A stretch of DNA of 64,000 nucleotides, taken from the NCBI GenBank assembly GCA_046309815.1, contig JBKCOJ010000005.1, positions 97,404-161,403 of the forward strand. The letters run 5' to 3'. Within the stretch, counting starts at the first letter, position 1; every line of letters begins with the position of its first letter. The notes below the pieces were generated by a model. It had not been told where the DNA came from, searched no databases, and was given only the letters and a program-made list of their open reading frames with translations. This document shows positions 7,340 through 50,656 of the stretch, one piece after another. Source of the stretch: Pseudomonadota bacterium (GTDB lineage Bacteria > Pseudomonadota > Alphaproteobacteria > Paracaedibacterales > CAITNM01). Both the position numbers and the translations under genes were made by a program.

Positions 7340-8494
7340 ATGCTGTTTGTCGCTGTTATTTTTATTCTTTTTCTCGCAGGTATGGAAGTTGATATTTTCA
7401 TTCCAAGCTACCCTGAGCTTCAGCAACAATTTAATTTATCTCCGGCCACCGTGCAGCTTTGCTTAAGTTTAAATTTTCTTACTTATTGCATCGGCTCTTT
7501 ATATGCGGGTGCTTTCGGAGATCGCTATGGGCTACGTCGTGTTATTTTGTCAGGACTATTAGTCTTTATTGCTGGAAGCATTTTCTGCAGTTTTGCAAAC
7601 GATTTCTGTTCTATTTTAATTGGAAGAGCATTACAAGGACTAGGTATGGCTGCCCCCGCATCTCTTGGTTATGTTGTAATTTGTGAACAATATCCTGCTG
7701 AAAACCAAGCTGCCATGCTTGGAACACTCAACGGCATTATTACCGTAGGAATGGCTTTGGCTCCTGTTATTGGAAGTTACGTTACTCTGTATGCAGGTTG
7801 GCGTGGAAATTTCGTTATATTACTTGCGCTCGCATTAATAGCATTACTAGCGTGTGTGTTCGTAATGCCATGCGATCATCGCAATAACAAAGATGTTTCT
7901 CTACCCTTAATATCGTACAAGTCTGTCGTCATTTCAAAATCTTACTGGGCTTTATTATCTATTATTTTTGCCTATGCATGTTCTTACTGGATATTCATTG
8001 GTATGGGATCTATTCTTTATATTGAAGGTTTTGGTATCCCACTTTCTGAGTTTGGTTTTTATCAGGGAGCCATCGCTGGATCTTTTGGACTTATTAGTTT
8101 CCTCAGCCCAAAATTCCTTAGTAAAATTGGTCATCGAAAATGCTTAAACATATCTGTGATTGTGGCCACCATGGTGGCAATAGCTCTCGGCTTAGTTGCT
8201 TTAACTGGTTTAAATAACCCATTATTAATCACTGGACTTATGTGTGTATTTGCAATGTTTATCGTTATGCCTGTCAACATTTTATATCCAATTTTATTGG
8301 ATGTAGTGCCGGATACAAAATCTCGCGCTGCTGCTCTTGGAAATGTTATGAGACTTGTAATTTCTGCAGTTTTCATTGAATTAGTAAGCTATGCCTACAA
8401 TGGAACCTTCTTTCATCTAGGCCTAGTGCTCTTTGTGTTCTCAATGGTTGGTTTTTTCCTCGCGCGATCTAAATTTATTTCTCATCTGGTGTAA
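7340..8494 (+). CDS. MFS transporter, Bcr/CflA-like (second copy)
   Basis: DIFIPSYPELQQQF and GAFGDRYGLRRV motifs with multiple TM segments. Confidence 0.75.
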   Translation: MLFVAVIFILFLAGMEVDIFIPSYPELQQQFNLSPATVQLCLSLNFLTYCIGSLYAGAFGDRYGLRRVILSGLLVFIAGSIFCSFANDFCSILIGRALQGLGMAAPASLGYVVICEQYPAENQAAMLGTLNGIITVGMALAPVIGSYVTLYAGWRGNFVILLALALIALLACVFVMPCDHRNNKDVSLPLISYKSVVISKSYWALLSIIFAYACSYWIFIGMGSILYIEGFGIPLSEFGFYQGAIAGSFGLISFLSPKFLSKIGHRKCLNISVIVATMVAIALGLVALTGLNNPLLITGLMCVFAMFIVMPVNILYPILLDVVPDTKSRAAALGNVMRLVISAVFIELVSYAYNGTFFHLGLVLFVFSMVGFFLARSKFISHLV

Positions 8495-9842
8495 AAGGAA
8501 ATAACAATCCTTTACCCTCAGGTGAAAAAGCCATTTGGTCAGAGTCCCTTGGAAAATGAGGAGACCCTGAAATAGCCTCTTCTGAATGATACGGCGCTAG
8601 CTTTCCAAGATGACGGACTGCAGTTTCTATTGCTACTAACGATTCTCGGTATTTATCAGTGGGCACATATTCTACCCTCCAGGCACCAGTCTCCATAGCT
8701 TTCCTGCTAGGGTAAAGATCTTTAACTTTCCCCCATATATCTTTAAGGTTATTTTTTGAGTGCCCTGTGTCATTTTGCATTTCTGCATCTACCACCAAAT
8801 GCTCTGGCCTGCAAACAGGAGAAGGGGCCCTAAATAATAACATAGGCTTACTTCTTTTTTCAGAACCTAAGTCGATGGCACCTATACAAAAGCTCCCGCT
8901 CCTAAAATTATTACCAATAGATTTAAAATTTGACGGCTCTACATAGGCAATAATTCCATCAAATTGCAAATCCGTTTTTTCTACAGGCAACTCTGACCCT
9001 TCATTAATCACATGCACATTTTGTTTTTTCCACCTTGGTACGAGGCAAGAATTGAAAAGACCCACAGCAGTTTGACCTACACGCATACTTTGGAATCGCT
9101 TATCCACCATAGTACTACGTTCTGACGTTCCTTTGTAACATACCACATCACTTTCATCGATATTAGCGAGCCATATATCGCCAAGAACTTCTGTAGACCG
9201 ATCACTCATGGCGCCCAGAATTGTGTAAGTCACTGAAGATGGAAAATGTGGCTCACCATCTCCATCGTCATAAATTCCATCGGGTAATTCATAAAATAAT
9301 GGCATTAACGGATTAGGCAAAAAATTATACATTTGATATAGATGATTTATTTTTCTTGAAAATTTCTCTCTTGTGCCATATTTCCTTGTAAGAAAGGCAT
9401 ACCCATCTCCTCCTTCTTTCTCTACACTCTCTAGATAGGCCGTATTGATTTCAACAAGTCTATCGTAATCATCTGGGTGAGTTGGTGTTAAGATTAAATG
9501 GGTGATTCTCTTTGACGAGATTAAAGAAGAACTAGCAATATTGTCAGCGCCTGGAAAAGGGACAACAATAGCAAATGGCCTACGTTGATTTGCAATCAAT
9601 TGATCTTTTATAAAACTAGGAATTTCATCAGTAATGAAGTCAGCAGTTGTGAGTATAATTGATCTGGAGCCCAATTCATGCACGTGACGAGTGGGAGATT
9701 GTTCAACAGCTCTTTTCACTGCTCTCACAGTTTCAGGAGTAAAAACCTTATTATCGCCAGTTTTTCTTGCTGGTGTTTTAAAGCTTGAAGCATCTTTTTT
9801 TCCAGCTCTTTCAGGGCTTGAGGGTTCTTCCATTGCTTGCAC
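8475..9842 (-). CDS. Hypothetical protein with no recognisable domain and a basic Ser/Pro/Lys-rich N-terminus
   Basis: 455-aa uninterrupted ORF (GTG at 9842 or ATG at 9833). No signal peptide or TM segment. Its 3' end overlaps the MFS gene by 20 nt. Confidence 0.6.
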   Translation of the reverse strand: MQAMEEPSSPERAGKKDASSFKTPARKTGDNKVFTPETVRAVKRAVEQSPTRHVHELGSRSIILTTADFITDEIPSFIKDQLIANQRRPFAIVVPFPGADNIASSSLISSKRITHLILTPTHPDDYDRLVEINTAYLESVEKEGGDGYAFLTRKYGTREKFSRKINHLYQMYNFLPNPLMPLFYELPDGIYDDGDGEPHFPSSVTYTILGAMSDRSTEVLGDIWLANIDESDVVCYKGTSERSTMVDKRFQSMRVGQTAVGLFNSCLVPRWKKQNVHVINEGSELPVEKTDLQFDGIIAYVEPSNFKSIGNNFRSGSFCIGAIDLGSEKRSKPMLLFRAPSPVCRPEHLVVDAEMQNDTGHSKNNLKDIWGKVKDLYPSRKAMETGAWRVEYVPTDKYRESLVAIETAVRHLGKLAPYHSEEAISGSPHFPRDSDQMAFSPEGKGLLFPFTPDEK

Positions 9843-10104
9843 TTTTAAAACGAAAATACCAATAAATAAAACAAATAAAAATTTTATAACTAAAGATTCT
9901 TAAAGAATTCATGTGCGTAATATAATAAGTCTTGTTGATTAATAAAAGATTAAAATTTAATTACAAATATAAAAAAATTTATGATGCTCTAAAGCATCAC
10001 TACACTTATCAACAGACCTACAAAAAGAACCTATGAATAACCCAACCTCTAGTCAAATATCCCGAAACGTTTTATTATTTGTTATCAATCTATGTAATTA
10101 CTCA

Positions 10105-10602
10105 ATGAAGATGAAAAAGATATTTTTAGTTGCAGGTGCAACATTACCTTTGTTTTTAACAAACTGTGCTCCTAAATTAGGCGGCAGTGATTATGCTATG
10201 GCCGATGTTGGAGCGAATAGCCTAAGTTTAAGAGGAACAATTGTCGCTATCAGGACAGTTAACATTAATGCTTCACAGCCAAATCAACCTGGCGTAGGCG
10301 CCGCTGTTGGCGCTGTATCAGGCGCAGTCATAGGCAATGTTGTTAGCAACCACGGACCATTCACAACCTTGGCTGGTGGTTTATTAGGAGGTGTAGGCGG
10401 GCACTATGCTGAACAAGCACTTACATCACAAGAAGGATTCGAATACACCGTTGAGCTTGAAAATGGTCAAGTTCAAACAATTGCTCAAGGCGCAGAACCA
10501 AGAATGTCAGTTGGCCAACGAGTTATTGTTGTATTAAACAATAAAGGGGTTAATGGCCAAGGAGCTCGTTCTCGAGTCATCCCAGATAATTCTAGCCGCT
10601 AA
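10105..10602 (+). CDS. Outer-membrane lipoprotein, glycine-zipper (17-kDa surface antigen / Slp-like) family
   Basis: MKMKKIFLVAGATLPLFLTNC signal peptide with lipobox, then the glycine zipper GVGAAVGAVSGAVIGNVV...GGLLGGVGG. The ORF-track N-terminal extension is rejected. Confidence 0.8.
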   Translation: MKMKKIFLVAGATLPLFLTNCAPKLGGSDYAMADVGANSLSLRGTIVAIRTVNINASQPNQPGVGAAVGAVSGAVIGNVVSNHGPFTTLAGGLLGGVGGHYAEQALTSQEGFEYTVELENGQVQTIAQGAEPRMSVGQRVIVVLNNKGVNGQGARSRVIPDNSSR

Positions 10603-10618: not shown

Positions 10619-11398
10619 ATGGACGCTCAATCTGCAGCAGTTGCAGCCGCCGCAACGATACAATCGGCAAATGATGTAGCTGTACAAACAATGGCACAAG
10701 TTGGCCCTAGTGTAGCAAAGCATCTCTCTATGTGGGATATGTTTTGGGGGGCTGACATCATTATCAAACTAGTTATGGTAGGATTAATTCTGGCTTCTGT
10801 TTGGTCGTGGACAATTATTTTTCATAAAGTTATTAGAATGCATCGCTTAAATAATCTAGCGGATCAGTTTGAAGAATCATTTTGGTCAGGCGGCCCGCTG
10901 GATGACTTGTTTAATCGTTTGCAGAATAAATACACAGACCCAATGTCTTCAGTTTTTTGCGCAGCTATGCGTGAATGGCGACGATCCACGTCAAAAGGTT
11001 ATGCTAAGGCAGCGAACCTAAGAGGAACGCTTGAACAACGCATTGAGAGAGTCATGCAAGTAACAGTTAGTCGCGAAATGGACCAGCTAGAACGTCATAT
11101 GGGCTTTTTAGCCTCTCTAGGAGCAAATGCGGTAATTGTTGGACTATTCGGGACTGTTTTAGGCATCATGAATAGCTTTGAAAACATCGCCACCATGCAA
11201 AATACCAATCTTGCGGTTGTTGCGCCAGGTATTGCCGAGGCATTATTTGCTACAGCTATCGGGCTCATTGCTGCTATTCCAGCAGCCATTGCTTATAATA
11301 AATTATCTAGTGATTTCAATCGCTATGGAAATCGTTTGGATGCGTTTGTAGGCGAGTTTAGCTCGATTATTTCTCGTCAACTAGAAGAGCACGGCTAA
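10619..11398 (+). CDS. tolQ: Tol-Pal system protein TolQ (MotA/TolQ/ExbB channel)
   Basis: C-terminal GLFGTVLGIMNSF...VAPGIAEALFATAIGLIAAIPA motif, GAGG-type RBS, followed by tolR-tolA. Confidence 0.92.
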   Translation: MDAQSAAVAAAATIQSANDVAVQTMAQVGPSVAKHLSMWDMFWGADIIIKLVMVGLILASVWSWTIIFHKVIRMHRLNNLADQFEESFWSGGPLDDLFNRLQNKYTDPMSSVFCAAMREWRRSTSKGYAKAANLRGTLEQRIERVMQVTVSREMDQLERHMGFLASLGANAVIVGLFGTVLGIMNSFENIATMQNTNLAVVAPGIAEALFATAIGLIAAIPAAIAYNKLSSDFNRYGNRLDAFVGEFSSIISRQLEEHG

Positions 11399-11844
11399 TG
11401 GCTGGCGGACATTTTCATTCTTTGAGCAGAAAGTCTTCGAGAAGGCGTAATACTGGATTTAACTCCAGCATAAACATCACACCTTTAGTGGATGTTATGT
11501 TGGTGCTGCTTATTATTTTTATGGTGACAGCTCCCATGCTAACTGTTGGGGTGCCTGTAGATTTACCAAAAACGCAAGCAGCACAAATGAACGATAGTAT
11601 AGAACCTCTCGTTGTCAGTATTAACGCAAAAGGCGAAACATATATTCAAGAAGCTCTTGTGCCGATATCTTCAATAATTGATAGATTAAAAGCCATTACC
11701 AATAACAATACCGAAGCTAAAATTTATGTAAGAGGCGATAGAAAAATTGCTTACGGTAAAGTCATGGAATTAATGGGTGCCATTGCTGCAGCAGGCTTTC
11801 AAAAAGTTTCGTTGATTGCTGAATTGCCCTCAGCGACAAGGTAA
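11398..11844 (+). CDS. tolR: Tol-Pal system protein TolR (ExbD/TolR)
   Basis: INITPLVDVMLVLLIIFMVTAP motif; start overlaps the tolQ stop (TAATG). Confidence 0.92.
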   Translation: MAGGHFHSLSRKSSRRRNTGFNSSINITPLVDVMLVLLIIFMVTAPMLTVGVPVDLPKTQAAQMNDSIEPLVVSINAKGETYIQEALVPISSIIDRLKAITNNNTEAKIYVRGDRKIAYGKVMELMGAIAAAGFQKVSLIAELPSATR

Positions 11845-11847
11845 ATT

Positions 11848-12765
11848 ATGCGTAAAGCACTCCTCTATTCTGCTTTATTACATATTATCATTTTTCTAGT
11901 CGTTTATTTTGACTTACGCTTTGCACTTTTTCAAAGGATGGATACCTCACAAGCCATGATTTTTGATTTTGTTGCAATTAGCGATAAGTCTGCTGCTCCG
12001 AAGCGTTCCGTTGCGCCAGCTCCTGAAGAAACGGCAAAAGAAGAAATTAAGGAACAAGAAAAAAAGGAAGAATTAAAAAAGCAAGAAACTCCTGAACCAG
12101 AAAAACAGAAAGAGCCCGAAAAGCCTAAAGAACCCGAAAAACCAAAAGAACAAGAAGCAAAAAAAGAGAAACCTAAGGAAGAGACTATTCCTAAAAAGAA
12201 AGACAAAGATAAACCAAAGAAAGAAGAAAAAAAGAAGGACGAACCTAAGAAGAAAGAAAAAAAGACACCTAAAAAAGCAGAAGTTGACCTAACAAAACCC
12301 AAGCCAAAAGGTACAAAAGAAGACGCAAACGACAAGAAACCTAAAGCAAAGAAAAAAAGCATTGATGATGTCTTAAGCAAAGTTACTGATGATACGGATG
12401 CTATAGACGCCCTTATTGGAGAAGAAGGCGCTGACGTTGATAATTTAGGACCTGTTGTAACAGCTTCTGAAATTGATGCTGTGCGAGCGAAAATTCGCCC
12501 CTGTTGGTCGGTACCAGCTGGAGCAAAAGGAGCAAAAGATCTAGTGGTTGATATTGATATGGAGCTTAATGCGGATGGAACTGTTATTAAGGCTGATGTT
12601 GTTGACAAACGCCGCATGGCGAATGATCCATACTATAATGTGGCAGCAGAAAGTGCGCAAAGAGCAGTACTTGACCCTAAATGTAATCCTCTGCCATTAC
12701 CTAAAGGCAAATTTAATCAGTGGAAAAATATGACCATGAGCTTTAATCCCAAAGATATGTTTTAA
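11848..12765 (+). CDS. tolA: TolA-like cell-envelope integrity protein
   Basis: N-terminal TM anchor, a long K/E/P-rich domain II, a TolA/TonB-like C-terminal domain, and position after tolQR. Confidence 0.85.
   Translation: MRKALLYSALLHIIIFLVVYFDLRFALFQRMDTSQAMIFDFVAISDKSAAPKRSVAPAPEETAKEEIKEQEKKEELKKQETPEPEKQKEPEKPKEPEKPKEQEAKKEKPKEETIPKKKDKDKPKKEEKKKDEPKKKEKKTPKKAEVDLTKPKPKGTKEDANDKKPKAKKKSIDDVLSKVTDDTDAIDALIGEEGADVDNLGPVVTASEIDAVRAKIRPCWSVPAGAKGAKDLVVDIDMELNADGTVIKADVVDKRRMANDPYYNVAAESAQRAVLDPKCNPLPLPKGKFNQWKNMTMSFNPKDMF
12019..12364 (+). repeat. Purine-rich low-complexity tract encoding the K/E/P-rich TolA domain II (KEPEKPKEPEKPKEQE...)
   Basis: Visible A/G-rich run with imperfect short repeats. 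It generates the spurious antisense S/F-rich ORF 11931..12617. Confidence 0.7.
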
Positions 12766-16489: not shown

Positions 16490-16645
16490 AAACAAAATGA
16501 AGAATTAAATATCTTGGGTGTTGCAAAAGATCTACATGCCATCAGATTATATTATACACAGATGTAGTTTCCTTGGTGTTTTTTCAAATATTTGTTAGGG
16601 TTTAATTGGTTTAGTTTAAATGAATTTCTTGAGAAGGATTTATCC

Positions 16646-17101
16646 ATGAAAAAAGCATTATCTTCAATAGCGCTTGGCCTATTGTTAATCGGTTGTGAAT
16701 GCACAGATACATGCCAAAATGTAGATGCAAATGCATCTGCAACACCTGGTTCACCTGGTCATTTCAAATATACAGTAAAAGACCGCGTATTCTTTAACTT
16801 CGATAGCGCGACTCTTTCAGCTGATGACAAGAAGTCTCTTGAAGCACAAGCAGGATGGCTAAAAGTTTACTCATCAACAACAGCAACTGTTGAAGGTAAA
16901 TGTGACAGCCGCGGAACAAGCGAATATAACTTAGCTCTAGGTGCTCGTCGTGCCAATGCAGTTGAAAAGCAACTTGTAAAGCTTGGCGTTGATAAGAATC
17001 GTTTGAAAACAATTTCTTATGGAAAAGAAAAGCTTGAAGTTGTTGGCGATGGCGAAGCAGTACACGCGCAAAATCGTGTTGCGATTACTGTTATTAACTA
17101 A
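16646..17101 (+). CDS. pal: Peptidoglycan-associated lipoprotein Pal (OmpA-like)
   Basis: MKKALSSIALGLLLIGC lipobox and GKCDSRGTSEYNLALGARRANAV...SYGKE...NRV OmpA-C motif. The ATG at 16646 is preferred over the ORF-track start. Confidence 0.92.
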   Translation: MKKALSSIALGLLLIGCECTDTCQNVDANASATPGSPGHFKYTVKDRVFFNFDSATLSADDKKSLEAQAGWLKVYSSTTATVEGKCDSRGTSEYNLALGARRANAVEKQLVKLGVDKNRLKTISYGKEKLEVVGDGEAVHAQNRVAITVIN

Positions 17102-19554: not shown

Positions 19555-20763
19555 ATGCAGTTTTTAAAGTTTTTATTCATTTTATTTTTTAGCTTTATTA
19601 CCACTAATAATGCAGAAGCAAAGGTTAAAAAAAATCCAGCACAAATTGCCAAAAAAAAGGAATCAAAAGAAAAAAATATTCTAGAGCCATATGGTGTTGA
19701 AGTTAACTCCACTCACGCCCTTTTAGTAGATCACCAAACCGGTAAAATTTTGCTTGAAAAAAATGCTAATCAGTCATTCGAGCCAGCGTCTATGACAAAA
19801 ATCATGACTGCTTATATGGTAATGAAGGCGCTAAAAGAAGGGAGGATTAAACCTGAGTCACTCGTTACTATCTCAAGTAATGCACGCAGCATCGAAAAGG
19901 GTAGTAGTGATATGTTCTTGGAAATTGGTGATCAAGTTAGCGTTCAAGACCTTTTGATGGGACTGATAATCGTCTCGGGAAATGACGCAGCCATTGCTTT
20001 AGCAGAATATCTAAGCGGCACACAAAGTGCCTTCGCATCTGACATGAATTATGTTGCAAAAGAATTAGGTTGCTCTCAAACAGAATTTAAAAATGCTAGT
20101 GGATTACCAGAAGAAGGACACCTTACAACAGCCCATGACTTAATTATTATGAGCCAAAAAACGCTTGAAGATTTTCCAGAATGGTACAGTATTCATAAAG
20201 AATTAAAGTTTAAATATAGAAATATAGAACAACCTAACAGGAACCTCTTACTGAATAAGAATATAGGATGCGATGGAGTTAAAACAGGATTCGCTTCAAA
20301 ACCTGGTTATGGAATGGTTGCCTCTGCTGTGCAGAATGGACGCAGATTGTTTTTAGTTGTAACAGGTTTACACACAATGAAAGAACGCGCCGACGAGGCT
20401 TATCGCTTACTACAATGGGGATTTGGTACATTTGGAAATTACACCATCATGCCAGAAGGTAAATCTATACTTGAAATTCCTGTTCGTTATGGCTCACAAG
20501 AAATGGTGGAAATAATTGCTGATCAGCATCTATTAACTCTTCATCGTAATCGCATCCATCAAATAAAAGCTGCCATTAAATATCGAACTGTTTTAGAATC
20601 ACCCTTTAAAGCAGGAACCCAGGTGGGTGAAGTCATACTTACGCACCCCGATTGGCAAGAGAAAGTTATTATTCCATTAGTGGCAAAAAAGGATATTTCA
20701 AGAGCATCTTTTTTAAGTAGAATAGGTCAGACGCTAAAATATCTTTTTCAAAAGGATTCCTAA
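19555..20763 (+). CDS. dacC: D-alanyl-D-alanine carboxypeptidase (S11, PBP5/6-like) with C-terminal beta-sandwich domain
   Basis: Signal peptide; SMTK (SxxK), SGN and KTG motifs; rlpA-dac adjacency. Confidence 0.9.
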   Translation: MQFLKFLFILFFSFITTNNAEAKVKKNPAQIAKKKESKEKNILEPYGVEVNSTHALLVDHQTGKILLEKNANQSFEPASMTKIMTAYMVMKALKEGRIKPESLVTISSNARSIEKGSSDMFLEIGDQVSVQDLLMGLIIVSGNDAAIALAEYLSGTQSAFASDMNYVAKELGCSQTEFKNASGLPEEGHLTTAHDLIIMSQKTLEDFPEWYSIHKELKFKYRNIEQPNRNLLLNKNIGCDGVKTGFASKPGYGMVASAVQNGRRLFLVVTGLHTMKERADEAYRLLQWGFGTFGNYTIMPEGKSILEIPVRYGSQEMVEIIADQHLLTLHRNRIHQIKAAIKYRTVLESPFKAGTQVGEVILTHPDWQEKVIIPLVAKKDISRASFLSRIGQTLKYLFQKDS

Positions 20764-21851
20764 TGAGACCTTTTTTTAGTTCTGGCCCATGCGTTAAGCA
20801 CGCTGGCTGGTCTTTAGAACAATTAAATCGCCCTTTTATAAACAGGTCTCATCGCAGCGATATTGCAAAAAAACATCTGAAATCTATTATTGATCGCCAA
20901 CAAAAACTTTTAAATATACCTGATGATTATAAATTAGCTATTGTGCCCGCCTCTGCCACAGGAGCGATGGAAATGGCCATGTGGTGCTTTTTAGGAAGTC
21001 GCGATGTTGACGTACACGTTATGGATGTTTTCAGTAAAATTTGGGCTTATGATATTGAACGCCAGCTTAAAGTTCACACGCATATTTTTGAAGCTGAGTA
21101 CGGCAATCTTCCGCAAATGCATCACAACCCTAACCATGATTTAGTAATAGCCATCAGCGCTACAACTACTGGTGTTGCTTATCCACACACTGATTGGATT
21201 TTTAACGATCGACAAGGATTAGTTATTGTAGATGCAACAGCAGCAGCTTTTTGCTTTGATATACCTTTTGAGAAATTTGATGTTGTGGCTTTTTCCTGGC
21301 AAAAAGGATTAGGAAGTGAAGCCGCCCATGGAATGCTTGCTCTTAGCCCACGGGCGTTGGAGCAGCTTGAAACCTATATACCGCCACGACCAATTCCGCG
21401 AATTATGAGCTTATGGCTAGATGATAAAGTAAACTATGGAGTTTTTGAGGGCCTCACCCTAAATACACCTTCAATGTTATCGCTAGCTGATGTGGAATGC
21501 GCACTTGATTGGGCAGAAACTCTAGGGGGCGCAAAAGCTTTATATAAAAAATCAGCAGACAATGTATCTTTTCTATATGATTGGATTTTAAGAACTCCCA
21601 ATTTATCTCCGATGACAACGAAAGATATTCAGGCAAAAGGTGGAGCAGTTTGCTTTTTCGTGAATATATTCACTGCTTTTGATGAATATCGTGCTTTTGC
21701 AAAAAGCGTAGCTGATGAAAAGCTTCTTTTTGATATTGTTAATCATGCTCATTCAAAACCAAGCTTTAGAATTTGGTGCGGGCCAACCGTTGAAAAAAAT
21801 GATCTGATGCAGCTGACTAAAATTTTTGAAGAAAAACTCGTTAACTCCTAG
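20763..21851 (+). CDS. serC: Phosphoserine aminotransferase (short type)
   Basis: Class-V aminotransferase with FSWQKGLGSEAAHGMLALSPRA (PLP lysine). The start overlaps the dac stop (TAATG). Confidence 0.85.
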   Translation: MRPFFSSGPCVKHAGWSLEQLNRPFINRSHRSDIAKKHLKSIIDRQQKLLNIPDDYKLAIVPASATGAMEMAMWCFLGSRDVDVHVMDVFSKIWAYDIERQLKVHTHIFEAEYGNLPQMHHNPNHDLVIAISATTTGVAYPHTDWIFNDRQGLVIVDATAAAFCFDIPFEKFDVVAFSWQKGLGSEAAHGMLALSPRALEQLETYIPPRPIPRIMSLWLDDKVNYGVFEGLTLNTPSMLSLADVECALDWAETLGGAKALYKKSADNVSFLYDWILRTPNLSPMTTKDIQAKGGAVCFFVNIFTAFDEYRAFAKSVADEKLLFDIVNHAHSKPSFRIWCGPTVEKNDLMQLTKIFEEKLVNS

Positions 21852-31249: not shown

Positions 31250-31289
31250 TAATCTTGCATTATATATTTATTTTTCCAGTGTACCTAAT

Positions 31290-31799
31290 TTATGAATCAA
31301 GTTGAAATGAAATAGGTACTTCAAAGGAAGTCTTTTTATCTGCAGAGGTAAATTTCCAAGTTTTAAGCGCTACAATAATTGCTTCTTCAAATATTTCTTT
31401 TTGACCTTTCAGGGTACTAATTTCAATTAATTCAACCACTCCGTTTTCATTCACCAACATTTTTACGAGAAAAAAACCTTCTATTCCTTCACTTTTCGCT
31501 TGAGCAGGATAAGCAGGTGCCGGATTATAAATAATTTTTGCTACATCGACATTCGAATCCGTTACACTAGAGCTTGCCACTTCTTTAATTTTTTTGTGAT
31601 CAGACCTTTGCAACAAAGAGCTATTTTCAGTAATAGCGAACTTTTGTTGGTCTGCTGGCTTATTTTGAGAATCTATCCATTTAATAGAAAAACTGTTTGG
31701 CTCTGAGTATTTTGAACCTGTTATGTATTGACTAATTGAAATAGCCAACAACCCATGCAGCAGAATAGATCCAAGGAATATAAATCGCATTTTTACCAT
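31290..31799 (-). CDS. tonB: Energy transducer TonB (short form)
   Basis: N-terminal TM with SxxxH (GSILLHGLL); C-terminal TonB domain PAPAYPAQAKSEGIEGFFLVKMLVNENGVV. ATGGTAA overlap with the receptor stop. Confidence 0.85.
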   Translation of the reverse strand: MVKMRFIFLGSILLHGLLAISISQYITGSKYSEPNSFSIKWIDSQNKPADQQKFAITENSSLLQRSDHKKIKEVASSSVTDSNVDVAKIIYNPAPAYPAQAKSEGIEGFFLVKMLVNENGVVELIEISTLKGQKEIFEEAIIVALKTWKFTSADKKTSFEVPISFQLDS

Positions 31800-33574
31800 G
31801 TAATACTCACTCCTGTATTAATTTGGAATCCAGGGTTTCTGTATCCAATTGGATTTTCAATTTTTCTATTAAATGCATTTTCAATATTCACAAACCATGT
31901 GGCATGTTCTTTGAATTTATATTGAATATCTCCAAAGCAAACAGGATATCCTCCTCGCTTAATTCCAACTGTGTATTGTTCGAAATCTGGTTGAACTTGT
32001 GTTCCTGTATAACGACAACCAAATCCTACTGTTAGATCATCTTGCTCATAAATAATTTTACCATTTGCGGAAGTTCTAGGGACATTTAGAAGTCGCCTTT
32101 TAGGATTCAAGCTCACGGAATCTACATACATACCCGATAATTCCATCATCCATGCCTTATTAATCTTTTTTTTCCATCCTATTTCAAAACCTTCTTGCCT
32201 AGATTTATTGATATTTTGATATTTTTGATTTTGCTGAACTATTTGATGTTTATAGTTCGTTTTAAAAACAAGCACACTAAATGTTCCTAAAATTGTATGC
32301 TGAGAAATCCCTAAATTCCCACCATAAGCCGATTCGTGTTTTAGGTTTTTGTTGCCATGCTTCTTATCATTTAACTTATACAAATCCGGTATATTAAATC
32401 CTGTGCCAAAATGAGCAGATAATTCAGTATCATTATAATTTTTCAATACACTTGAGCTTATAGCATAAATGGTATCATAATGATTTGCTTTGTGAGCACG
32501 AACCCAATTTTTCCATTTAAAAGTATCCTTATCTAGATGAATGCCCTGAACAAATGCGTACTCGTCATTTTTTTTCTGATTAACACCTGAAGTATTCCAA
32601 ACATTATGATGATATTCAAGAAGAGGCTCAAAAAGCAGTATATCCCTTTTTATTTTTACACCAGTTTTTATTTTGCTATTTTCAGGACCATATGTGCTTG
32701 CGCTATTACCATTTTGGTAAGGTGAAAAATCTTGAGAGATAAGTTTCGTTTTTAAGATTTTTAAAAAAGGTTGAGCCTTCTCATTTATTCCTTCTAAATC
32801 AAGAGCATAAATCTGTAATGTTCTTTTTGAACGAGAATCACAAAAAGTAAATAGATTTGAATGAGAAATATTACTTCCTGTGGAGGTCGATTTAAGTAAT
32901 CCAATTTGCAATTTTCCTTTTGCGTGGTGATTTTGAAAACTAAGTTGATTTAAAAAATATCCCTTATCTGTTTCAGAACTTTTTACGGTTGAATACTTTC
33001 CTTGATACCTTTTAGGAATGGTATTTTTACCATGAAATATATTTTTTTCTAAATGTTGTTGCAAAGAAAAACCATCTTTTGTTTTTTGGCGCCACCAAAG
33101 ATGTCCCGATTGTATATAATTGCCACCACTTAATTTTAGGCCACCTTCTTGCTCTTCAGGCATTGAAAAAGGAAGTATATTAACAACACCACCTATTGCT
33201 ATATTTCCATATTCAGCACAATGCACCCCTTTTATCACTTCAACTTTTCCTGTTGAGAAAGGAATTAAAGATGCATCAACCATCGATTCACTCAGGCTTA
33301 ACCCATTCCATAACACTCTATTGTAATCTGTAGGTGCCCCTTGAATCTTAATAGATGTCAATTGCCCAGGATTACCTGTTGTCGTTGTATTAACACCTGA
33401 AATACTTTGGAGTTGCTGTTCTTCAAATCCTGGTATTGTCGCCTGATCAGTTGTTAATGTTTCAATGAATTTCCAAGTAGATACATCTTTTTTTGCACTT
33501 ACAATAATTGGAGATAAAGAAACAGTCGCGGCAGTCACAGATGCTGTCAGCACCTTAAACAATAAAAAGCGCAT
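31793..33574 (-). CDS. btuB: TonB-dependent outer-membrane receptor, BtuB-like (cobalamin)
   Basis: Signal peptide, TonB-box-like SPIIVSA, plug plus 22-strand-barrel size (593 aa), aromatic C-terminus, and a cobalamin riboswitch in its leader. Confidence 0.85.
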   Translation of the reverse strand: MRFLLFKVLTASVTAATVSLSPIIVSAKKDVSTWKFIETLTTDQATIPGFEEQQLQSISGVNTTTTGNPGQLTSIKIQGAPTDYNRVLWNGLSLSESMVDASLIPFSTGKVEVIKGVHCAEYGNIAIGGVVNILPFSMPEEQEGGLKLSGGNYIQSGHLWWRQKTKDGFSLQQHLEKNIFHGKNTIPKRYQGKYSTVKSSETDKGYFLNQLSFQNHHAKGKLQIGLLKSTSTGSNISHSNLFTFCDSRSKRTLQIYALDLEGINEKAQPFLKILKTKLISQDFSPYQNGNSASTYGPENSKIKTGVKIKRDILLFEPLLEYHHNVWNTSGVNQKKNDEYAFVQGIHLDKDTFKWKNWVRAHKANHYDTIYAISSSVLKNYNDTELSAHFGTGFNIPDLYKLNDKKHGNKNLKHESAYGGNLGISQHTILGTFSVLVFKTNYKHQIVQQNQKYQNINKSRQEGFEIGWKKKINKAWMMELSGMYVDSVSLNPKRRLLNVPRTSANGKIIYEQDDLTVGFGCRYTGTQVQPDFEQYTVGIKRGGYPVCFGDIQYKFKEHATWFVNIENAFNRKIENPIGYRNPGFQINTGVSITW

Positions 33575-33599
33575 AAATTACCCTTTAGGTTAGCGTTCA

Positions 33600-33800
33600 C
33601 ATAGCGCATCACCCGTAGGGCTTCCCTTCTTGACCAACCGCGCGGATCCAGAAAAAGTGATACTCTTTTTGCAGGTTTCCTGGCTTGTTGATCGTTGCTA
33701 ACACTTAACCTTCCCAGATTGCTCCAGTGGTATTTAAAGCGCGCTCCCAACGTACAGTTGCGGCGGACAGCTTGGGATTTTAACCCAATTCCCTAACACA
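33600..33800 (-). promoter_or_regulatory. Cobalamin (B12) riboswitch
   Basis: The minus strand reads TTAGGGAATTGGGTTAAAATCCCAAGCTGTCCGCCGCAACTGTA...CCACTGGAGCAATCTGGGAAGG...AAGCCAGGAAACCTGC. It contains the conserved core elements and the B12 box and sits directly upstream of the btuB-like gene. Confidence 0.9.
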
Positions 33801-33849
33801 AAAAGTTCTTAAAACCTAAAATGAAAAAACGTGACTGTCAAGCAGCCAC

Positions 33850-35037
33850 CTAACAATATTGCCCAGCAACATATCCTGATGACCAAGCCCACTGAAAATT
33901 ATAACCGCCAAGCCATCCTGTTACATCAACCACTTCGCCAATAAAAAACAACCCTGGAATTTTTTTACTTTCCATTGTTTTTGAGGATAATTCATCTGTA
34001 TCGATGCCTCCTATAGTGACCTCAGCTTTTTGATAGCCCTCACTTCCATTAATTGGCACTCTAAACTGATGAAGTGAATCAGCAATGTTTAACAAGATAC
34101 TATTTTTAAGATCTGTAATGCTCCGATCAAAATCAGCTGTAGCCATAGCTTCCACCAAACGGCTTGGCAAATAATTTTTCAAAAAATTCGCGACTGTTTG
34201 TTTGCTATTCTTATGCGTTATGAATTCTTGTTTTAAATCCATATCAGGCAACAGATTAATCAGGATTTCTGTTTGTGAGAATTTTTCTAAATACGATGAA
34301 ATTTGCAAAATTGCAGGGCCACTTAATCCACGGTGCGTAAATAAAATATTCTCTCGAAACTGTGCCCCTTTATAGGTGACTAATGAATCTTGTGAAACAC
34401 CACTAAGTTTTGCGCACATTACAAGCTTTGGATTATCGACCTTTAATGGCACCAAGGCTGGCTGTGTGGCTAAAACTTTCATACCAAATTGCCGTGCAAT
34501 CTTATAACCAAAATCAGATGCCCCAATTTGTGGAATAGAAAGCCCACCTGTTGCAATAACTACAGAATTTGCCTCAATAATTCCATCTGAAGTTGCAAGC
34601 ACAAATCGATCATTTTTCTCAATTGATTCTACAGAACAATTTGGACGAACATCCACTTGGCCTTTTTGGCATTCACTCAACATCATGTTGATAATTTGCT
34701 TCGATGATCCATCGCAAAACAATTGCCCTAATGTCTTTTCGTGATAGGCAATGTCATATGATTCAACGAGCTTAATAAAATCATGCTGTGTATAACGCGC
34801 CAGTGCGGATTTTATAAAATGCTTGTTGTTGCAAATATAGTTTTTAGGTGATGCAAATAAATTTGTGAAATTACATCGTCCTCCACCAGATATACGAATT
34901 TTTTCTCCAATTTTGGAAGTATGTTCAATAAGTATAACACGTCTACCTCGTTTACTAGCAGCTACTGCCGCCATCAATCCAGCCGCACCTCCCCCAATGA
35001 CAACAACATCACATGATACTTTTGAAGAAGAGCTCAA
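33850..35037 (-). CDS. NAD(P)/FAD-dependent oxidoreductase, HI0933/YhiN (BaiN-like) family
   Basis: VVVIGGGAAGLMAA...GEKIRISGGGRCNFTN and C-terminal GEVVDVTGWLGGYNFQWAWSSG. Confidence 0.88.
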   Translation of the reverse strand: MSSSSKVSCDVVVIGGGAAGLMAAVAASKRGRRVILIEHTSKIGEKIRISGGGRCNFTNLFASPKNYICNNKHFIKSALARYTQHDFIKLVESYDIAYHEKTLGQLFCDGSSKQIINMMLSECQKGQVDVRPNCSVESIEKNDRFVLATSDGIIEANSVVIATGGLSIPQIGASDFGYKIARQFGMKVLATQPALVPLKVDNPKLVMCAKLSGVSQDSLVTYKGAQFRENILFTHRGLSGPAILQISSYLEKFSQTEILINLLPDMDLKQEFITHKNSKQTVANFLKNYLPSRLVEAMATADFDRSITDLKNSILLNIADSLHQFRVPINGSEGYQKAEVTIGGIDTDELSSKTMESKKIPGLFFIGEVVDVTGWLGGYNFQWAWSSGYVAGQYC

Positions 35038-39801: not shown

Positions 39802-41403
39802 TTAACTGTATTCCACTGTAGGATTCAAGACCATACCCGGAATTTTTGGAGCCGGAGCTTTTGCTATAGAATCAGTTGTTGTTAACACATTAGCTGAATT
39901 TGTAAATGATTTTACGGCTGGTAATGTATAGTCTGGTGTTCTATAAAGTTTTACCGTACAGCTATCCGCGCCTATTCCTGCCGCAGCTGTCTCTTCGCTG
40001 ATATTAAATAAGTTAGAATCTTTGATAAACACTGCCTCGTAAGCGCCACGAAGTTTTATTTGAGCTACTTCACCAGGGAAATTCGTAGTTTCCGTTAATG
40101 TGATACATGCTTTATCAACATCACTACTTGAATTTCCTAGTTCTGGGTGTTTCTGTATAGAGAATGGTTGTGAACCGATAAGATCTCCAGCAACGCCTCG
40201 ATTAAATGTTATTGGGGATCCAATCACCATATAACCGCCACCCGCTCTTGGCAAGACACTTCTAATGAATGGATCTGCACTTCCTGGTTCTACAAATACG
40301 CCACAGTCTCTTGGTAAATCCCCTTGGAACCAACCCAAAGGATCGCTCTCTGGAGATTTTGTGAAAGCAAAACGAATTCTTGTTCCTATACCAGGTTTTG
40401 GTAACGCAAACTGAAGGCCACCTTTCACCATTATATCGTAGCCAGTTGGATCACCAGTTAACCAAACCTCTTTTACGTGATGTGGCAGATATGATATTTC
40501 TCCTGAACCATCATAACTGTTTGTAAGAACTGTGTTCTGCTCGGCCGGAGTCCCTGTTTGTATGAAATTAATAAAGAGAACTTCACACCATTCTTCAGGC
40601 GTTTCGAAACCTGAAAATCCAGCTGTACTACCAACCGCGATAATGTCGTGGCGTTGATTCTTATTCACTGGTTTACCGGAAGTATAAGAGGTAGGGGTAG
40701 GACTCACATAAGTTGTGCCACCGCTCACTACTAGGTAATAGTTCTCGGCATCCTTTTGATGGGTTAGCACAACATCTGCGTGATTCATATTAATAAGGGA
40801 AATAAAATCCCCTAGAATACCTCCGGGCTCTCTACCTCTAATAATAGGGAAACGAACTCCGCCATGATCATAATCTCCGGGTGCAACGTAAACAGCTAAA
40901 TTTCCTGATAAATTCGCAGATTCAACATCAAAGAAGTCACACAACCCATCTGGAAAAACTTTTACCGACAATATAGATGTCGTAGGTGATGTTTGAGAAA
41001 AGCTTTCTAATCTTAATGAATGAGGAACAGCACCATCTACAGCACTTGTTTGTAAATTTCCTCCATTATATACGATCTGTGCCTGTGTTGAGCTTCTATA
41101 TATAGCACCAGCTTTTACCGTCAAAGAACGATTTAAAATTCCTTTATTATCTATAGTTCTTTCTGAAACTATTGTATCGCCTGTCACTACTACTGTGCTA
41201 TTCCATTTTAGAAGCCCTGCCCCAATTTTATTAGGATTTCTTTCCAATAGCCCCCCCATTGTGCTCTCTTCCCCTTCATCAACCCTAATATTAAAAATTG
41301 ATTCACTCGAAGGGTAAAGAAAGCAGGTACATACCCATATCAAAAGAAACCTATAAATTCTTTCGCTTATCTTTGGTAGAAACAGCTTGTTTAAATTAAC
41401 CAT
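39802..41403 (-). CDS. Hypothetical large secreted or membrane-anchored protein, G/T/S/V-rich (probably beta-rich)
   Basis: Long uninterrupted ORF with an N-terminal hydrophobic anchor or signal (FLLIWVCTCFLYPSS). No recognisable domain and no C-terminal beta-barrel signature. The ATG at 41403 is preferred over 41448. Confidence 0.6.
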   Translation of the reverse strand: MVNLNKLFLPKISERIYRFLLIWVCTCFLYPSSESIFNIRVDEGEESTMGGLLERNPNKIGAGLLKWNSTVVVTGDTIVSERTIDNKGILNRSLTVKAGAIYRSSTQAQIVYNGGNLQTSAVDGAVPHSLRLESFSQTSPTTSILSVKVFPDGLCDFFDVESANLSGNLAVYVAPGDYDHGGVRFPIIRGREPGGILGDFISLINMNHADVVLTHQKDAENYYLVVSGGTTYVSPTPTSYTSGKPVNKNQRHDIIAVGSTAGFSGFETPEEWCEVLFINFIQTGTPAEQNTVLTNSYDGSGEISYLPHHVKEVWLTGDPTGYDIMVKGGLQFALPKPGIGTRIRFAFTKSPESDPLGWFQGDLPRDCGVFVEPGSADPFIRSVLPRAGGGYMVIGSPITFNRGVAGDLIGSQPFSIQKHPELGNSSSDVDKACITLTETTNFPGEVAQIKLRGAYEAVFIKDSNLFNISEETAAAGIGADSCTVKLYRTPDYTLPAVKSFTNSANVLTTTDSIAKAPAPKIPGMVLNPTVEYS

Positions 41404-41533
41404 AACAACTCCCCTAAAACTAGGAGAAGTACCCTGCTGTACCCGCATTTACCAAACGGTACTTACCCCTTATTTCTCTTTGAAGGATGCCCTTCTACTG
41501 CTAAGATTAGTTAGCAAGGGTAAACAAACAGTT

Positions 41534-45677: not shown

Positions 45678-45780
45678 ATTGAAAGACTTTCACGTTACCC
45701 ATCATGTATTGATACTCATTAAATAAATATTAATATTTTTTACGTATTCTAAGGAATAACGAATAATCTTTGAGGTTGTG

Positions 45781-46233
45781 ATGAAGGCGTTGTTTTTTGG
45801 GTTGATGATGTTTTTATGTGTGTCAGCAGCAGATGAGCTGGATGGCTTTCTTATGAAATATGTTCAAAGCTTAGTACAACCTCACACGAACCAAAAGCCC
45901 AGCGAAAAAGAAAAGCATGGCTTAGAGCATGCAGACTCAGCGCCAGTTATAGCATCTGAAGCTGAAGTTCTAGAAGGTCCAGCACAAGATCCACAGGAAT
46001 CTTTAAAAAATAAAAGCCCTATATTAGCGAGCGCTGATGTTCCAAATCCAGCAAAAAAAGAACTAAAAGAGCAAGAAGAAAAGCAAGATTTGAAATACGG
46101 TCCAATGCAAGGTAAAAATTCTCTTGAAGATGAATCTCATCATCTCATTGATTTAGATTTGGGACTTTTGAATTCGAATCCAGAGGGAACAAGCGCTGTT
46201 CGTAATGCAGCACCGACTGCTGCCGGCGCTTAA
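45781..46233 (+). CDS. Hypothetical secreted acidic, low-complexity protein
   Basis: GAGG RBS 5 nt before the ATG at 45781. Signal peptide MKALFFGLMMFLCVSAADE, then an E/K/P/S-rich, disordered-looking sequence. 4-nt convergent overlap with fabF. Confidence 0.55.
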   Translation: MKALFFGLMMFLCVSAADELDGFLMKYVQSLVQPHTNQKPSEKEKHGLEHADSAPVIASEAEVLEGPAQDPQESLKNKSPILASADVPNPAKKELKEQEEKQDLKYGPMQGKNSLEDESHHLIDLDLGLLNSNPEGTSAVRNAAPTAAGA

Positions 46234-49213: not shown

Positions 49214-50656
49214 ATGAGACCATCACAATGGGTTGATGCATTAGAAACAGAGCGCGACAAAGCAGATGCTGTAGGAGTTTTTGAAGCTTTCAAATATTAC
49301 ACCAAAGAAATATCTACAACCCTTGCAGGTAAATATGGTGAGGTAGAAATGTCTCCCGTAAAACTTGTTTATTCGGTTATACGTACGCGTCACAAATTTT
49401 CGGGCAAGCGTAATATGCTTACAGATTTTTATGGAGTAACTGAAACAGCAACTATTACTCCACAACAAACCACCATTTTAGTTGTTGATGCAATGATAGC
49501 AAAATCCATGAACAACGATGATGAGGCTTTTGATGCACAATGGGCAACTGTTAATGCAGAAAATCCACCTTCTTCAGAATTTATCGAAGCCCTTAAACAA
49601 TATGCACAAACATACGAACAGAAATCTTGGAATCCAACTTTAGCTGAGTCCTTAGAACAGTTTTTAGCAGCAAACCAATCAACAATAACCCTCACAAAAA
49701 AAATCTTTGATATTTTTGCACCTAAACTTACTTTGAATAAAATTTACGGAGAAATGGCCGTTGGCACTACCTACAAAGGATGGACCATACATGGTGCGAT
49801 TGCTTATCCTATAGTCCTTACAGCTGAAGAAAAATCAAACTATGGATGGCTAGAAGCCGCCCTTAATAAAAAAGTTTTTGAACTCATAGGCACAGGCATA
49901 CCTGTTGATACTTATTGTCGTTCTGCAATGGCAGATTTTGCTTCAGAAAGAATGATTTCTCAACTTGGCCTTATTCCCAACACAGTGATTCTATCATATA
50001 TATATGATCCAGCGACTTCAGAAATGACCGAAGCTCATGTTAGTAGTATGGGTATTTTACGTTTATTTTTCACAAGAGAAGCCGATCCCGAACTAGCAGA
50101 GATTTTAGGAAGACCTTTTGCTAAATCTTCCGAAAATGAAGTTAGCAAAATCTATACAATGACGATGAGAGAAGCAACTAAACGCAGACCTCAACAAGCA
50201 TCTTCTGAAGAAGTAACTTTCTTAAAAAATATTGGAAATCCTATAATGCTAAAACATATTTCAGCGTGGCATTTTCAAGCAAAACATAGATTTAAAGCAA
50301 GCATGCCAAAAGCAATAGAATTTTGCAGAGAAGCAGCTGATTTAGGCAATAAAGAAGCAGAACACAATCTTCCCATTATGCTTTATAAATATGCATCACA
50401 GCTTTATACTGGTAAATTCGTTATAAAAAACGAACAGCAAGGAATAAACTTTTGCGAAGAAGCAGTAATACTTGGGAATGCGGAGGCCAAAACCAACCTT
50501 CCAATCATGCTGTATAACTTTGCTGTAGCTCTTTTGCAAAAACAACCACAAACCGCTTCTTTAAAAGACCAAGCTATTGGATTACTCAGAAGAGCTGCCG
50601 ATTTAGGTCATGTTGGCTCTATCCAAATTATTTCTTCTTTGCCTAAAAATTCTTAA
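49214..50656 (+). CDS. Hypothetical protein with C-terminal Sel1-like (TPR-family) repeats
   Basis: About 340 aa with no recognisable domain, then repeats AIEFCREAADLGNKEAEHNLPIMLY / GINFCEEAVILGNAEAKTNLPIMLY / AIGLLRRAADLGHVGS. No obvious RBS. The frame stays open 40 codons upstream without a canonical start. Confidence 0.65.
   Translation: MRPSQWVDALETERDKADAVGVFEAFKYYTKEISTTLAGKYGEVEMSPVKLVYSVIRTRHKFSGKRNMLTDFYGVTETATITPQQTTILVVDAMIAKSMNNDDEAFDAQWATVNAENPPSSEFIEALKQYAQTYEQKSWNPTLAESLEQFLAANQSTITLTKKIFDIFAPKLTLNKIYGEMAVGTTYKGWTIHGAIAYPIVLTAEEKSNYGWLEAALNKKVFELIGTGIPVDTYCRSAMADFASERMISQLGLIPNTVILSYIYDPATSEMTEAHVSSMGILRLFFTREADPELAEILGRPFAKSSENEVSKIYTMTMREATKRRPQQASSEEVTFLKNIGNPIMLKHISAWHFQAKHRFKASMPKAIEFCREAADLGNKEAEHNLPIMLYKYASQLYTGKFVIKNEQQGINFCEEAVILGNAEAKTNLPIMLYNFAVALLQKQPQTASLKDQAIGLLRRAADLGHVGSIQIISSLPKNS

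Follow-up and report, generated by a model that had tools for sequence, protein, structure and literature searches.

In the btuB riboswitch of Escherichia coli, the Shine–Dalgarno (SD) sequence is sequestered in helix P14 in the OFF state, a helix between an anti-SD and an anti-anti-SD segment forms in the ON state, and P13 engages in a pseudoknot with the aptamer (PMC11162775). The kissing loop between L5 and L13 stabilizes P13 and thereby promotes the ribosome-binding-site hairpin; without ligand, part of the P13 3′ side pairs with the repressing hairpin (PMC10327014). Here we analyzed a 64,000-nucleotide (nt) stretch of contig JBKCOJ010000005.1 (the window) from the alphaproteobacterial assembly GCA_046309815.1, which very probably carries a class-I-type cobalamin riboswitch in the ~230-nt leader of an operon encoding a BtuB-like TonB-dependent receptor and TonB, most likely acting on translation initiation. 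The receptor gene, tonB and all features of the leader lie on the minus strand.

The locus resembles the E. coli btuB riboswitch in its aptamer, which matches RF00174 at full length and has both a B12 box and a P6 extension, its position in the leader of a btuB-type receptor gene, an expression platform free of terminators, an SD-sequestering helix equivalent to P14, an alternative anti-SD:anti-anti-SD helix, and a P13 hairpin with a loop complementary to L5. Unlike in E. coli, where tonB is encoded away from btuB, the operon also carries tonB, predicted to be translationally coupled. Further differences are that one anti-anti-SD lies in the linker between closing helix and P13 and a second (GGG) at the foot of P13, and that the −35 element of the promoter sits within the terminator of the upstream gene. 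The window has UCCGCCG as its L5 and most relatives have CCCCCG, compared with a reported UCCCG consensus. The corrinoid riboswitch of Priestia megaterium metE forms a terminator and controls a B12-independent enzyme (PMC10327014), whereas SD occlusion is predicted here and the controlled protein is a transporter. The pairing of riboswitch and btuB is archetypal, and the element is an ordinary regulator that changes no concept; only the riboswitch-controlled tonB, and a possible TonB system dedicated to corrinoid uptake, are mildly unusual.

The cobalamin aptamer and its conservation

A preliminary description, made from the sequence of the window, had proposed an unannotated cobalamin riboswitch ahead of a btuB-like receptor gene and named a covariance-model (CM) search with Rfam RF00174 as its check. 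Scanning the whole window with Rfam 15 at gathering thresholds returned three matches, two tRNAs and one riboswitch. The latter matches RF00174 (Cobalamin) at 33818..33653 with 92.5 bits (E = 1.1e-21), about three times the gathering score of 31.5, and covers model positions 1–189 of 189 without truncation. It lies on the strand of the receptor gene, ends 78 nt before the receptor ATG and has a conserved promoter upstream. The riboswitch thus passed the proposed search, and the covarying helices in orthologous loci described below confirm it.

Every motif quoted in the preliminary description was found on the minus strand: AGGGAA (33794–33789), GGTTAAAATCC (33785–33775), GCTGTCCGCCGCAACTGTA (33771–33753), CCACTGG (33730–33724), CTGGGAAGG (33717–33709) and the B12 box AAGCCAGGAAACCTGC. 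The box itself was correctly recognized; its range, given as 33671–33685, was one base short of the actual 33686–33671. The core motifs of RF00174 (B12 box, GGGAA junction, GGUNAAANCC of L4 and GCCACUG) are all present and nearly invariant in 19 leaders. The aptamer (33653..33818) is closed by a helix of CUUUUUGU (33805–33798) with GCAAAAAG (33672–33665), and the CM alignment places L5 (UCCGCCG), the proposed kissing-loop partner of L13, at 33761..33767. A peripheral P6 extension occupies ~33752–33690 of the window; the CM alignment spans it with paired segments, with covariation at pair 83/107. By this extension the aptamer is of class-I type, that is, adenosylcobalamin type, with the ligand predicted. 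Plain minimum-free-energy (MFE) folding of the 271-nt leader gave a z-score of +0.43 and missed the aptamer, because the fold is pseudoknotted and ligand-dependent; this result is uninformative and was not counted against the riboswitch.

The element recurs throughout the relatives of the locus. A RF00174 match of 90–118 bits stands ~80 nt before the receptor start in all 16 related loci with enough upstream sequence. The loci from GTDB genomes gave it in 12/12 cases (93–118 bits), and contigs L101, L103 and L105 at 90–110 bits. It was also found, at 100 bits, in locus L110, whose receptor (P0061) is a distant relative only 21% identical to that of the window.

Covariation was counted on an alignment of 19 leaders (A3), with the P6 helices defined by inspection; the literal pairs of the cmscan structure line had given implausible outer P6 pairs. 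The aptamer helices are paired in 95.2% of alignment cells, compared with 31–55% in slid controls. Changes on both sides of a pair occur in P3 (CG:16, AU:2), in P4 (CG:15, GC:2) and in the P6 extension, and the observed aptamer covariation score was reached by 0 of 500 shuffles. P5 and the inner part of P6 are invariant and thus uninformative. The preliminary description had named failure of the conserved junction architecture as grounds for refutation; P3, P4 and the P6 extension instead keep their pairing through compensatory changes. Judged by these sequence comparisons, selection clearly maintains the structure of this RNA element.

A TTG-initiated open reading frame (ORF) of 67 amino acids (aa) runs over the riboswitch (33547..33750) and had already been called spurious. 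With its 67 open codons on the correct strand, it could be read as a real small protein or leader peptide, the RNA similarity being incidental or a decaying relic. The ORF has no Pfam or NCBIfam match, and of 18 orthologous leaders 17 interrupt the homologous frame, by stops at codons 10–56 or by frameshifts and indels. The RNA helices, by contrast, are kept through compensatory changes while the frame breaks, and the CM score is threefold the gathering score in all loci. The coding alternative therefore deserves next to no weight, and annotation of the locus is repaired by removing this ORF and adding the regulatory RNA. An ATG inside the conserved CCCATGGGTGA, chosen by the gene caller in L105, was considered as a leader-peptide or alternative start and discarded: the window reads CCCTACGGGTGA at this place, and in most relatives the frame is not that of the receptor.

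The leader begins close behind the upstream gene. This gene, encoding a flavin adenine dinucleotide (FAD) protein, ends at 33850 and is followed by an intrinsic terminator hairpin (33849–33831; GTGGCTG-CTTGA-CAGTCAC plus T-run), identified by terminator scan and kept in orthologues with compensatory changes at two stem pairs. A sigma-70 promoter is predicted at 33813..33841, with −35 TTGACA (33841–33836), a 17-nt spacer and −10 TAGGTT (33818–33813). The −35 element is embedded in the loop and 3′ arm of the terminator hairpin, an arrangement conserved in orthologues. TTGAC of the −35 element, together with the T, the A and the final T of the −10 element, is invariant in 13 orthologous leaders. 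From this conserved promoter, transcription would probably start near 33806, giving a transcribed leader of ~230 nt. The 275 nt previously assigned to the leader hold as intergenic distance and exceed the predicted transcript. The proposed ~95-nt expression platform agrees with the ~96 nt from the B12 box to the ATG at 33574, which is preceded, as described, by an AAGGG SD (33585–33581) with a 6-nt spacer. The E. coli btuB leader is ~240 nt long, similar to the length predicted here.

Some features of the leader and its neighborhood stand apart. In most leaders an aptamer segment, GAGCGCA (~33745–33739), is complementary to the start-codon region, UGCGCUU (33575–33567), corresponding to RNAalifold pairs 126–132/310–316 of alignment A2; this may be a long-range contact or chance. 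Contig L105 contains a second, weak RF00174 match (L105:1048–1175, 35.1 bits), a partial duplicate of the btuB promoter and the 5′ half of the aptamer. The duplicate lies upstream of an inserted ORF of 397 aa (L105:1258–2451), lysine-rich and secreted, without significant family match, which directly precedes the complete riboswitch and receptor gene. In L101, a 470-aa signal-peptide protein without Pfam match (L101:8289–9701) is encoded directly upstream of the riboswitch. Its homologues occur in L007, L015–L017, L021 and L022 (36–54% identity), with truncated remnants in L010, L013 and L023–L025; the protein is absent from the window.

Expression platform and proposed switching

The platform contains two helices that compete for the anti-SD. 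The anti-SD segment CCCUACGGGU (33620–33611, within 33606..33620) is predicted to pair with the SD strand ACCUAAAGGG (33581..33590), which includes the AAGGG SD. In the window this helix joins CCCU with AGGG and GGGU with ACCU; across the alignment, pair 200/234 changes between CG (13) and UA (5) among distinct sequences and pair 202/232 between UG (10) and UA (5). The alternative, anti-sequestering helix was drawn from the RNAalifold consensus and consists of the anti-anti-SD strand GUAUCACUU (33655..33663), one base 3′ of the closing helix, with GGGUGAUGC (33614–33606). Its 12 pairs are 97% paired, and pair 155/209 occurs as GC:9, GU:6 and AU:3 with zero mismatches. The two helices are mutually exclusive because GGGU (33614–33611) is common to both, the 3′ strand of the anti-sequestering helix overlapping the anti-SD. 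With 19 leaders carrying two covarying, mutually exclusive platform helices, the family offers a clean natural example of a btuB-type translational switch. A small variable hairpin (GCG...CGC, 33593..33607) lies inside the SD-sequestering helix in the predicted OFF folds of all lineages, with differing sequences; its column-wise pair counts are blurred through alignment shifts.

Between the closing helix and the anti-SD, the leader alignment defines the P13 hairpin (33624..33656), with lower stem UUUUUCU/AGAAGGG, upper stem GAUC/GGUC and loop L13 CGCGCGGUU (33644–33636). With the three outermost G-U pairs left uncounted, nine pairs of P13 show 89.5% pairing, and both partners vary at three of these nine. 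L13 is G-rich in every lineage. A second competition operates at the foot of P13, where GGG has two possible partners, the U's that lengthen P13 and the anti-SD CCC; in forced folds, the OFF fold has full-length P13 and the ON fold a short P13 plus GGG/CCC. Loops L5 and L13 are complementary in four variants: most relatives have CCCCG/CGGGG, L007 and L008 CUCG/CGAG, the window CCGC/GCGG and L101 CCGU/GCGG. Each lineage keeps its cognate complementarity of 4–5 base pairs (bp), counting G-U pairs, and combining a majority-type L5 with the window-type L13 yields −2.8 kcal/mol versus −7.6 for the cognate pair.

In the mechanism we propose, the ligand-free (ON) leader would hold the 3′ half of the anti-SD CCCUACGGGU in the anti-anti-SD helix of GUAUCACUU with GGGUGAUGC, while the anti-SD CCC would pair with GGG at the P13 foot, leaving the AAGGG SD free. 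Corrinoid binding (OFF) would stabilize the closing helix and the L5–L13 kissing loop. P13 would then zip to full length (UUUUUCU/AGAAGGG), taking bases away from both helices of the ON state; the anti-SD, thus freed, would pair with ACCUAAAGGG, occluding the SD and turning receptor translation off. Translation of tonB, whose start overlaps the receptor stop, would fall along with it through coupling. By analogy with the E. coli element, we infer this ligand, switch direction, kissing-loop role and translational coupling as the most likely ones.

Instead of occluding the SD, the switch could act mainly on transcription, with RNA polymerase terminating in the leader or early ORF, either intrinsically or through Rho. 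Sequence alone leaves room for Rho-dependent effects, and in E. coli btuB mRNA also drops, as a consequence of translation inhibition (PMC11162775). Between aptamer and ATG, however, there is no intrinsic terminator (a G+C-rich hairpin followed by a U-run), the terminator scan of 33300–34100 having returned only that of the upstream gene, and a conserved, covarying helix directly covers the SD. With such a terminator-free platform, control is most likely translational, and predominantly transcriptional control appears improbable.

The opposite direction, in which the element would be an activating (ON) riboswitch and B12 binding would open the SD, must also be weighed. One activating corrinoid riboswitch has been described (PMC10327014), and for every lineage the predicted ground state is the fold with sequestered SD. 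Energy calculations were tried as a guide to switch direction and abandoned for that purpose, as neither SD accessibility nor forced folds give a ligand-free ON state. In the described activator, P13 acts as an anti-terminator, whereas here full-length P13 belongs to the SD-sequestered fold. P13 takes U160–161 from the anti-sequestering helix and GGG from the GGG/CCC pairing, so a P13 stabilized by the kissing loop favors OFF. The logic of importer feedback and the E. coli btuB precedent likewise point to repression (PMC11162775). An activating switch is accordingly very improbable, and ligand-induced repression of translation remains the preferred model.

Several results weigh against this model or against the corrinoid-uptake function attached to it. 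Nearest-neighbor energies favor the SD-sequestered fold by 1–8 kcal/mol in every lineage (0.8–1.6 in the window), and this preference, seen in partition-function SD accessibility and in forced folds, is independent of the availability of the closing-helix 3′ strand. Since the energies never yield the ON state, such a ligand-free state would have to arise kinetically, during transcription; this is plausible because RNA polymerase reaches both anti-sequestering strands ahead of the SD. Invariant across leaders, the closing helix contributes no covariation evidence, and the 4-bp L5/L13 complementarity of the window lineage is not significant by itself, being equalled by 31% of L13 shuffles. As to gene content, the receptor scores far below the cut-offs of the BtuB equivalog models (TIGR01779, 95.3 bits versus 599.7; NF007926, 75.4 versus 836), the 64-kb window holds no dedicated exbB/exbD, only tolQRA, and its Pfam content includes no B12-dependent enzyme or btuCDF-type transporter.

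The BtuB-like receptor and tonB

The gene under control (31793..33574) encodes a TonB-dependent receptor of 593 aa with signal peptide, a TonB-box-like PIIVSA, a plug and a predicted 22-strand barrel. Pfam recognizes the Plug and TonB-dependent-receptor barrel domains, and among NCBIfam models the equivalogs for vitamin-B12 receptors, TIGR01779 and NF007926, match best. As it scores below their curated cut-offs, we call the protein BtuB-like rather than a BtuB equivalog. Behind the signal peptide, the clade consensus around PIIVSA is L-x-P-I-V-V-K-A-K-K, with I23 and K28 invariant and L20, P22 and A27 nearly so. The motif was judged a TonB box by inspection against DTLVVTA, the TonB-box motif of E. 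coli BtuB. The start column of orthologues holds ATG, GTG or TTG.

Kinship to BtuB was consistent across methods. Searched against PDB sequences, the clade profile retrieved E. coli BtuB as its top six matches (E ~1e-20), with Cir next at 6e-13. An AlphaFold2 (AF2) model was built on a 150-sequence alignment from a library-wide profile search and reached a predicted local distance difference test (pLDDT) of 90.5 and a predicted template-modeling score (pTM) of 0.89; an earlier model from 26 sequences (pLDDT 56) was discarded. In a Foldseek search of the PDB, the top 11 matches were all E. coli BtuB, with template-modeling (TM) scores of 0.80–0.88 and root-mean-square deviations of 2.6–3.3 Å over ~575–582 alignment columns. 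The model thus shares with E. coli BtuB (PDB 1NQE, 1NQH, 2GSK) a predicted plug and 22-strand barrel, a compact size and the TonB-box-like motif, and differs from it in its ~18–19% sequence identity, its sub-cut-off scores and its membership of an isolated clade confined to metagenome-assembled genomes (MAGs) of Paracaedibacteraceae-like type. Among the nearest relatives outside the clade, TIGR01779 was the best family, sub-threshold, in 10/10. The label "btuB-like" of the preliminary description therefore stands on best family, PDB-sequence and fold matches, all of which are BtuB, though the curated equivalog cut-offs are missed widely. Fold, as modeled, and nearest kinship justify it.

From this kinship and the riboswitch, the substrate is a probable corrinoid. 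The finding would assign a probable substrate to a very divergent receptor for which curated models give nothing more specific than "TonB-dependent receptor". B12 might instead be a regulatory signal only, the receptor importing cobinamide or another corrinoid, or something unrelated, for example haem or a siderophore, under a genuine riboswitch. Such a reading gains from the low family scores (only 95 bits on TIGR01779 and 75 on NF007926) and ~18–19% identity, and from the isolation of the clade, for which the library-wide profile search of 1.8 billion cluster representatives returned only 8 proteins at E ≤ 1e-30. Corrinoid riboswitches also reportedly respond to several corrinoids (PMC10327014, PMC9600662). 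On the other side, BtuB is best by family hidden Markov model, by PDB profile (1e-20 versus 6e-13 for Cir) and by fold (TM up to 0.88), the compact size of 593 aa is held in common with BtuB, and established comparative genomics finds genes under cobalamin riboswitches to serve B12 transport or synthesis or to encode B12-independent isozymes. We consider a different substrate unlikely and retain the corrinoid assignment as the preferred one.

Directly downstream lies tonB (31290..31799; 169 aa), which at its start shares 7 nt (ATGGTGA) with the end of the receptor gene, stop codon included. It exceeds the cut-offs of Pfam TonB_C (PF03544, 43 bits versus 24.6) and NCBIfam TonB (TIGR01352, 40.7 versus 27.1), and by inspection its N-terminal helix carries the S-x-x-x-H motif (GSILLHG), an anchor motif that normally works with ExbBD. 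The gene directly follows the receptor in all related loci and overlaps its stop in all of them except L110, where it begins 5 nt after the receptor; in the core clade the overlap is kept even where flanks differ. The controlled unit is receptor plus tonB, a point absent from the preliminary description. Two much more distant receptor relatives (21–35% identity), L109 (with overlapping tonB) and L110 (GCA_964351815.1, 5761–8338), likewise have tonB directly downstream. As L110 combines a 100-bit riboswitch with receptor and tonB, the riboswitch–receptor–tonB unit is older than the core clade.

Behind tonB, lptA and lptB follow across a 40-nt AT-rich gap (31250–31289, minus strand) without terminator-like site, and the lptA ATG has a TATAAT 9 nt ahead of it. 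Transcription of the B12-controlled operon could thus run on into the essential genes lptA and lptB, but an internal promoter is likely. The lptAB genes are not an obligate part of the unit, because other genes separate tonB from lptA in one relative.

The window also encodes tolQ, tolR and tolA, which score above or near NCBIfam cut-offs, and pal (10619–12765 and 16592–17101, plus strand). An ExbB/ExbD reading of 10619–11844 was rejected: the genes there, the only MotA/ExbB- and ExbD-family members in the window, pass the cut-offs for TolQ and TolR, and tolA comes next.

Host lineage and possible corrinoid use

The receptor belongs to a narrow lineage. An identical protein is encoded on 15 public contigs, which come from freshwater metagenomes and large whole-genome shotgun (WGS) assemblies. 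Database searching delineated a tight clade of ~30 proteins at 52–73% identity; the next matches, generic receptors, reach 36% at most. A metagenome scan for further orthologues yielded 6 true ones among 80 loci, the remainder being generic TonB-dependent receptors. GTDB orthologues sit in MAGs labelled Candidatus (Ca.) Finniella inopinata, Ca. Finniella sp., Ca. Odyssella sp. or plain Alphaproteobacteria; the names Ca. Finniella and Ca. Odyssella belong to the Holosporales, family Ca. Paracaedibacteraceae. Members of the Paracaedibacteraceae are endosymbionts of amoebae and other protists.

With relatives of this kind, regulated B12 scavenging by a metabolically reduced organism, as suggested in the preliminary description, is plausible. 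The Pfam content of the 64-kb window includes no cob/cbi gene, and literature searches on Paracaedibacteraceae, Finniella and Holosporales yielded nothing on B12 use in Paracaedibacteraceae. For an uncultured lineage akin to Ca. Finniella and Ca. Odyssella, the locus provides an indication of B12 sensing and import and a clue to auxotrophies and host–symbiont nutrient exchange.

A bolder reading, which we regard as rather unlikely, would have the B12 riboswitch of this Paracaedibacteraceae-like clade control the cell's TonB itself as well as a receptor. The receptor would then be the sole TonB-dependent transporter, and the TonB machinery a dedicated, B12-repressed corrinoid scavenger working in or near a eukaryotic host. 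If true, this would contrast with Rickettsia, reported to lack B12-dependent enzymes and presumably not importing B12 (PMC5615194), and would mean that the bacteria compete with their host for its cobalamin or share it.

Elsewhere in the window, which has a G+C content of 37%, several orphan ORFs of 151–548 aa have no significant Pfam match (8475–9842 and 39802–41448, minus strand; 20763–21851, 45778–46233 and 49214–50656, plus strand), the last showing only a sub-threshold Sel1 repeat. A gene resembling the Rickettsia 17-kDa antigen is located at 10033–10602. The orphan proteins and the 17-kDa-antigen-like gene fit a host-associated lineage.

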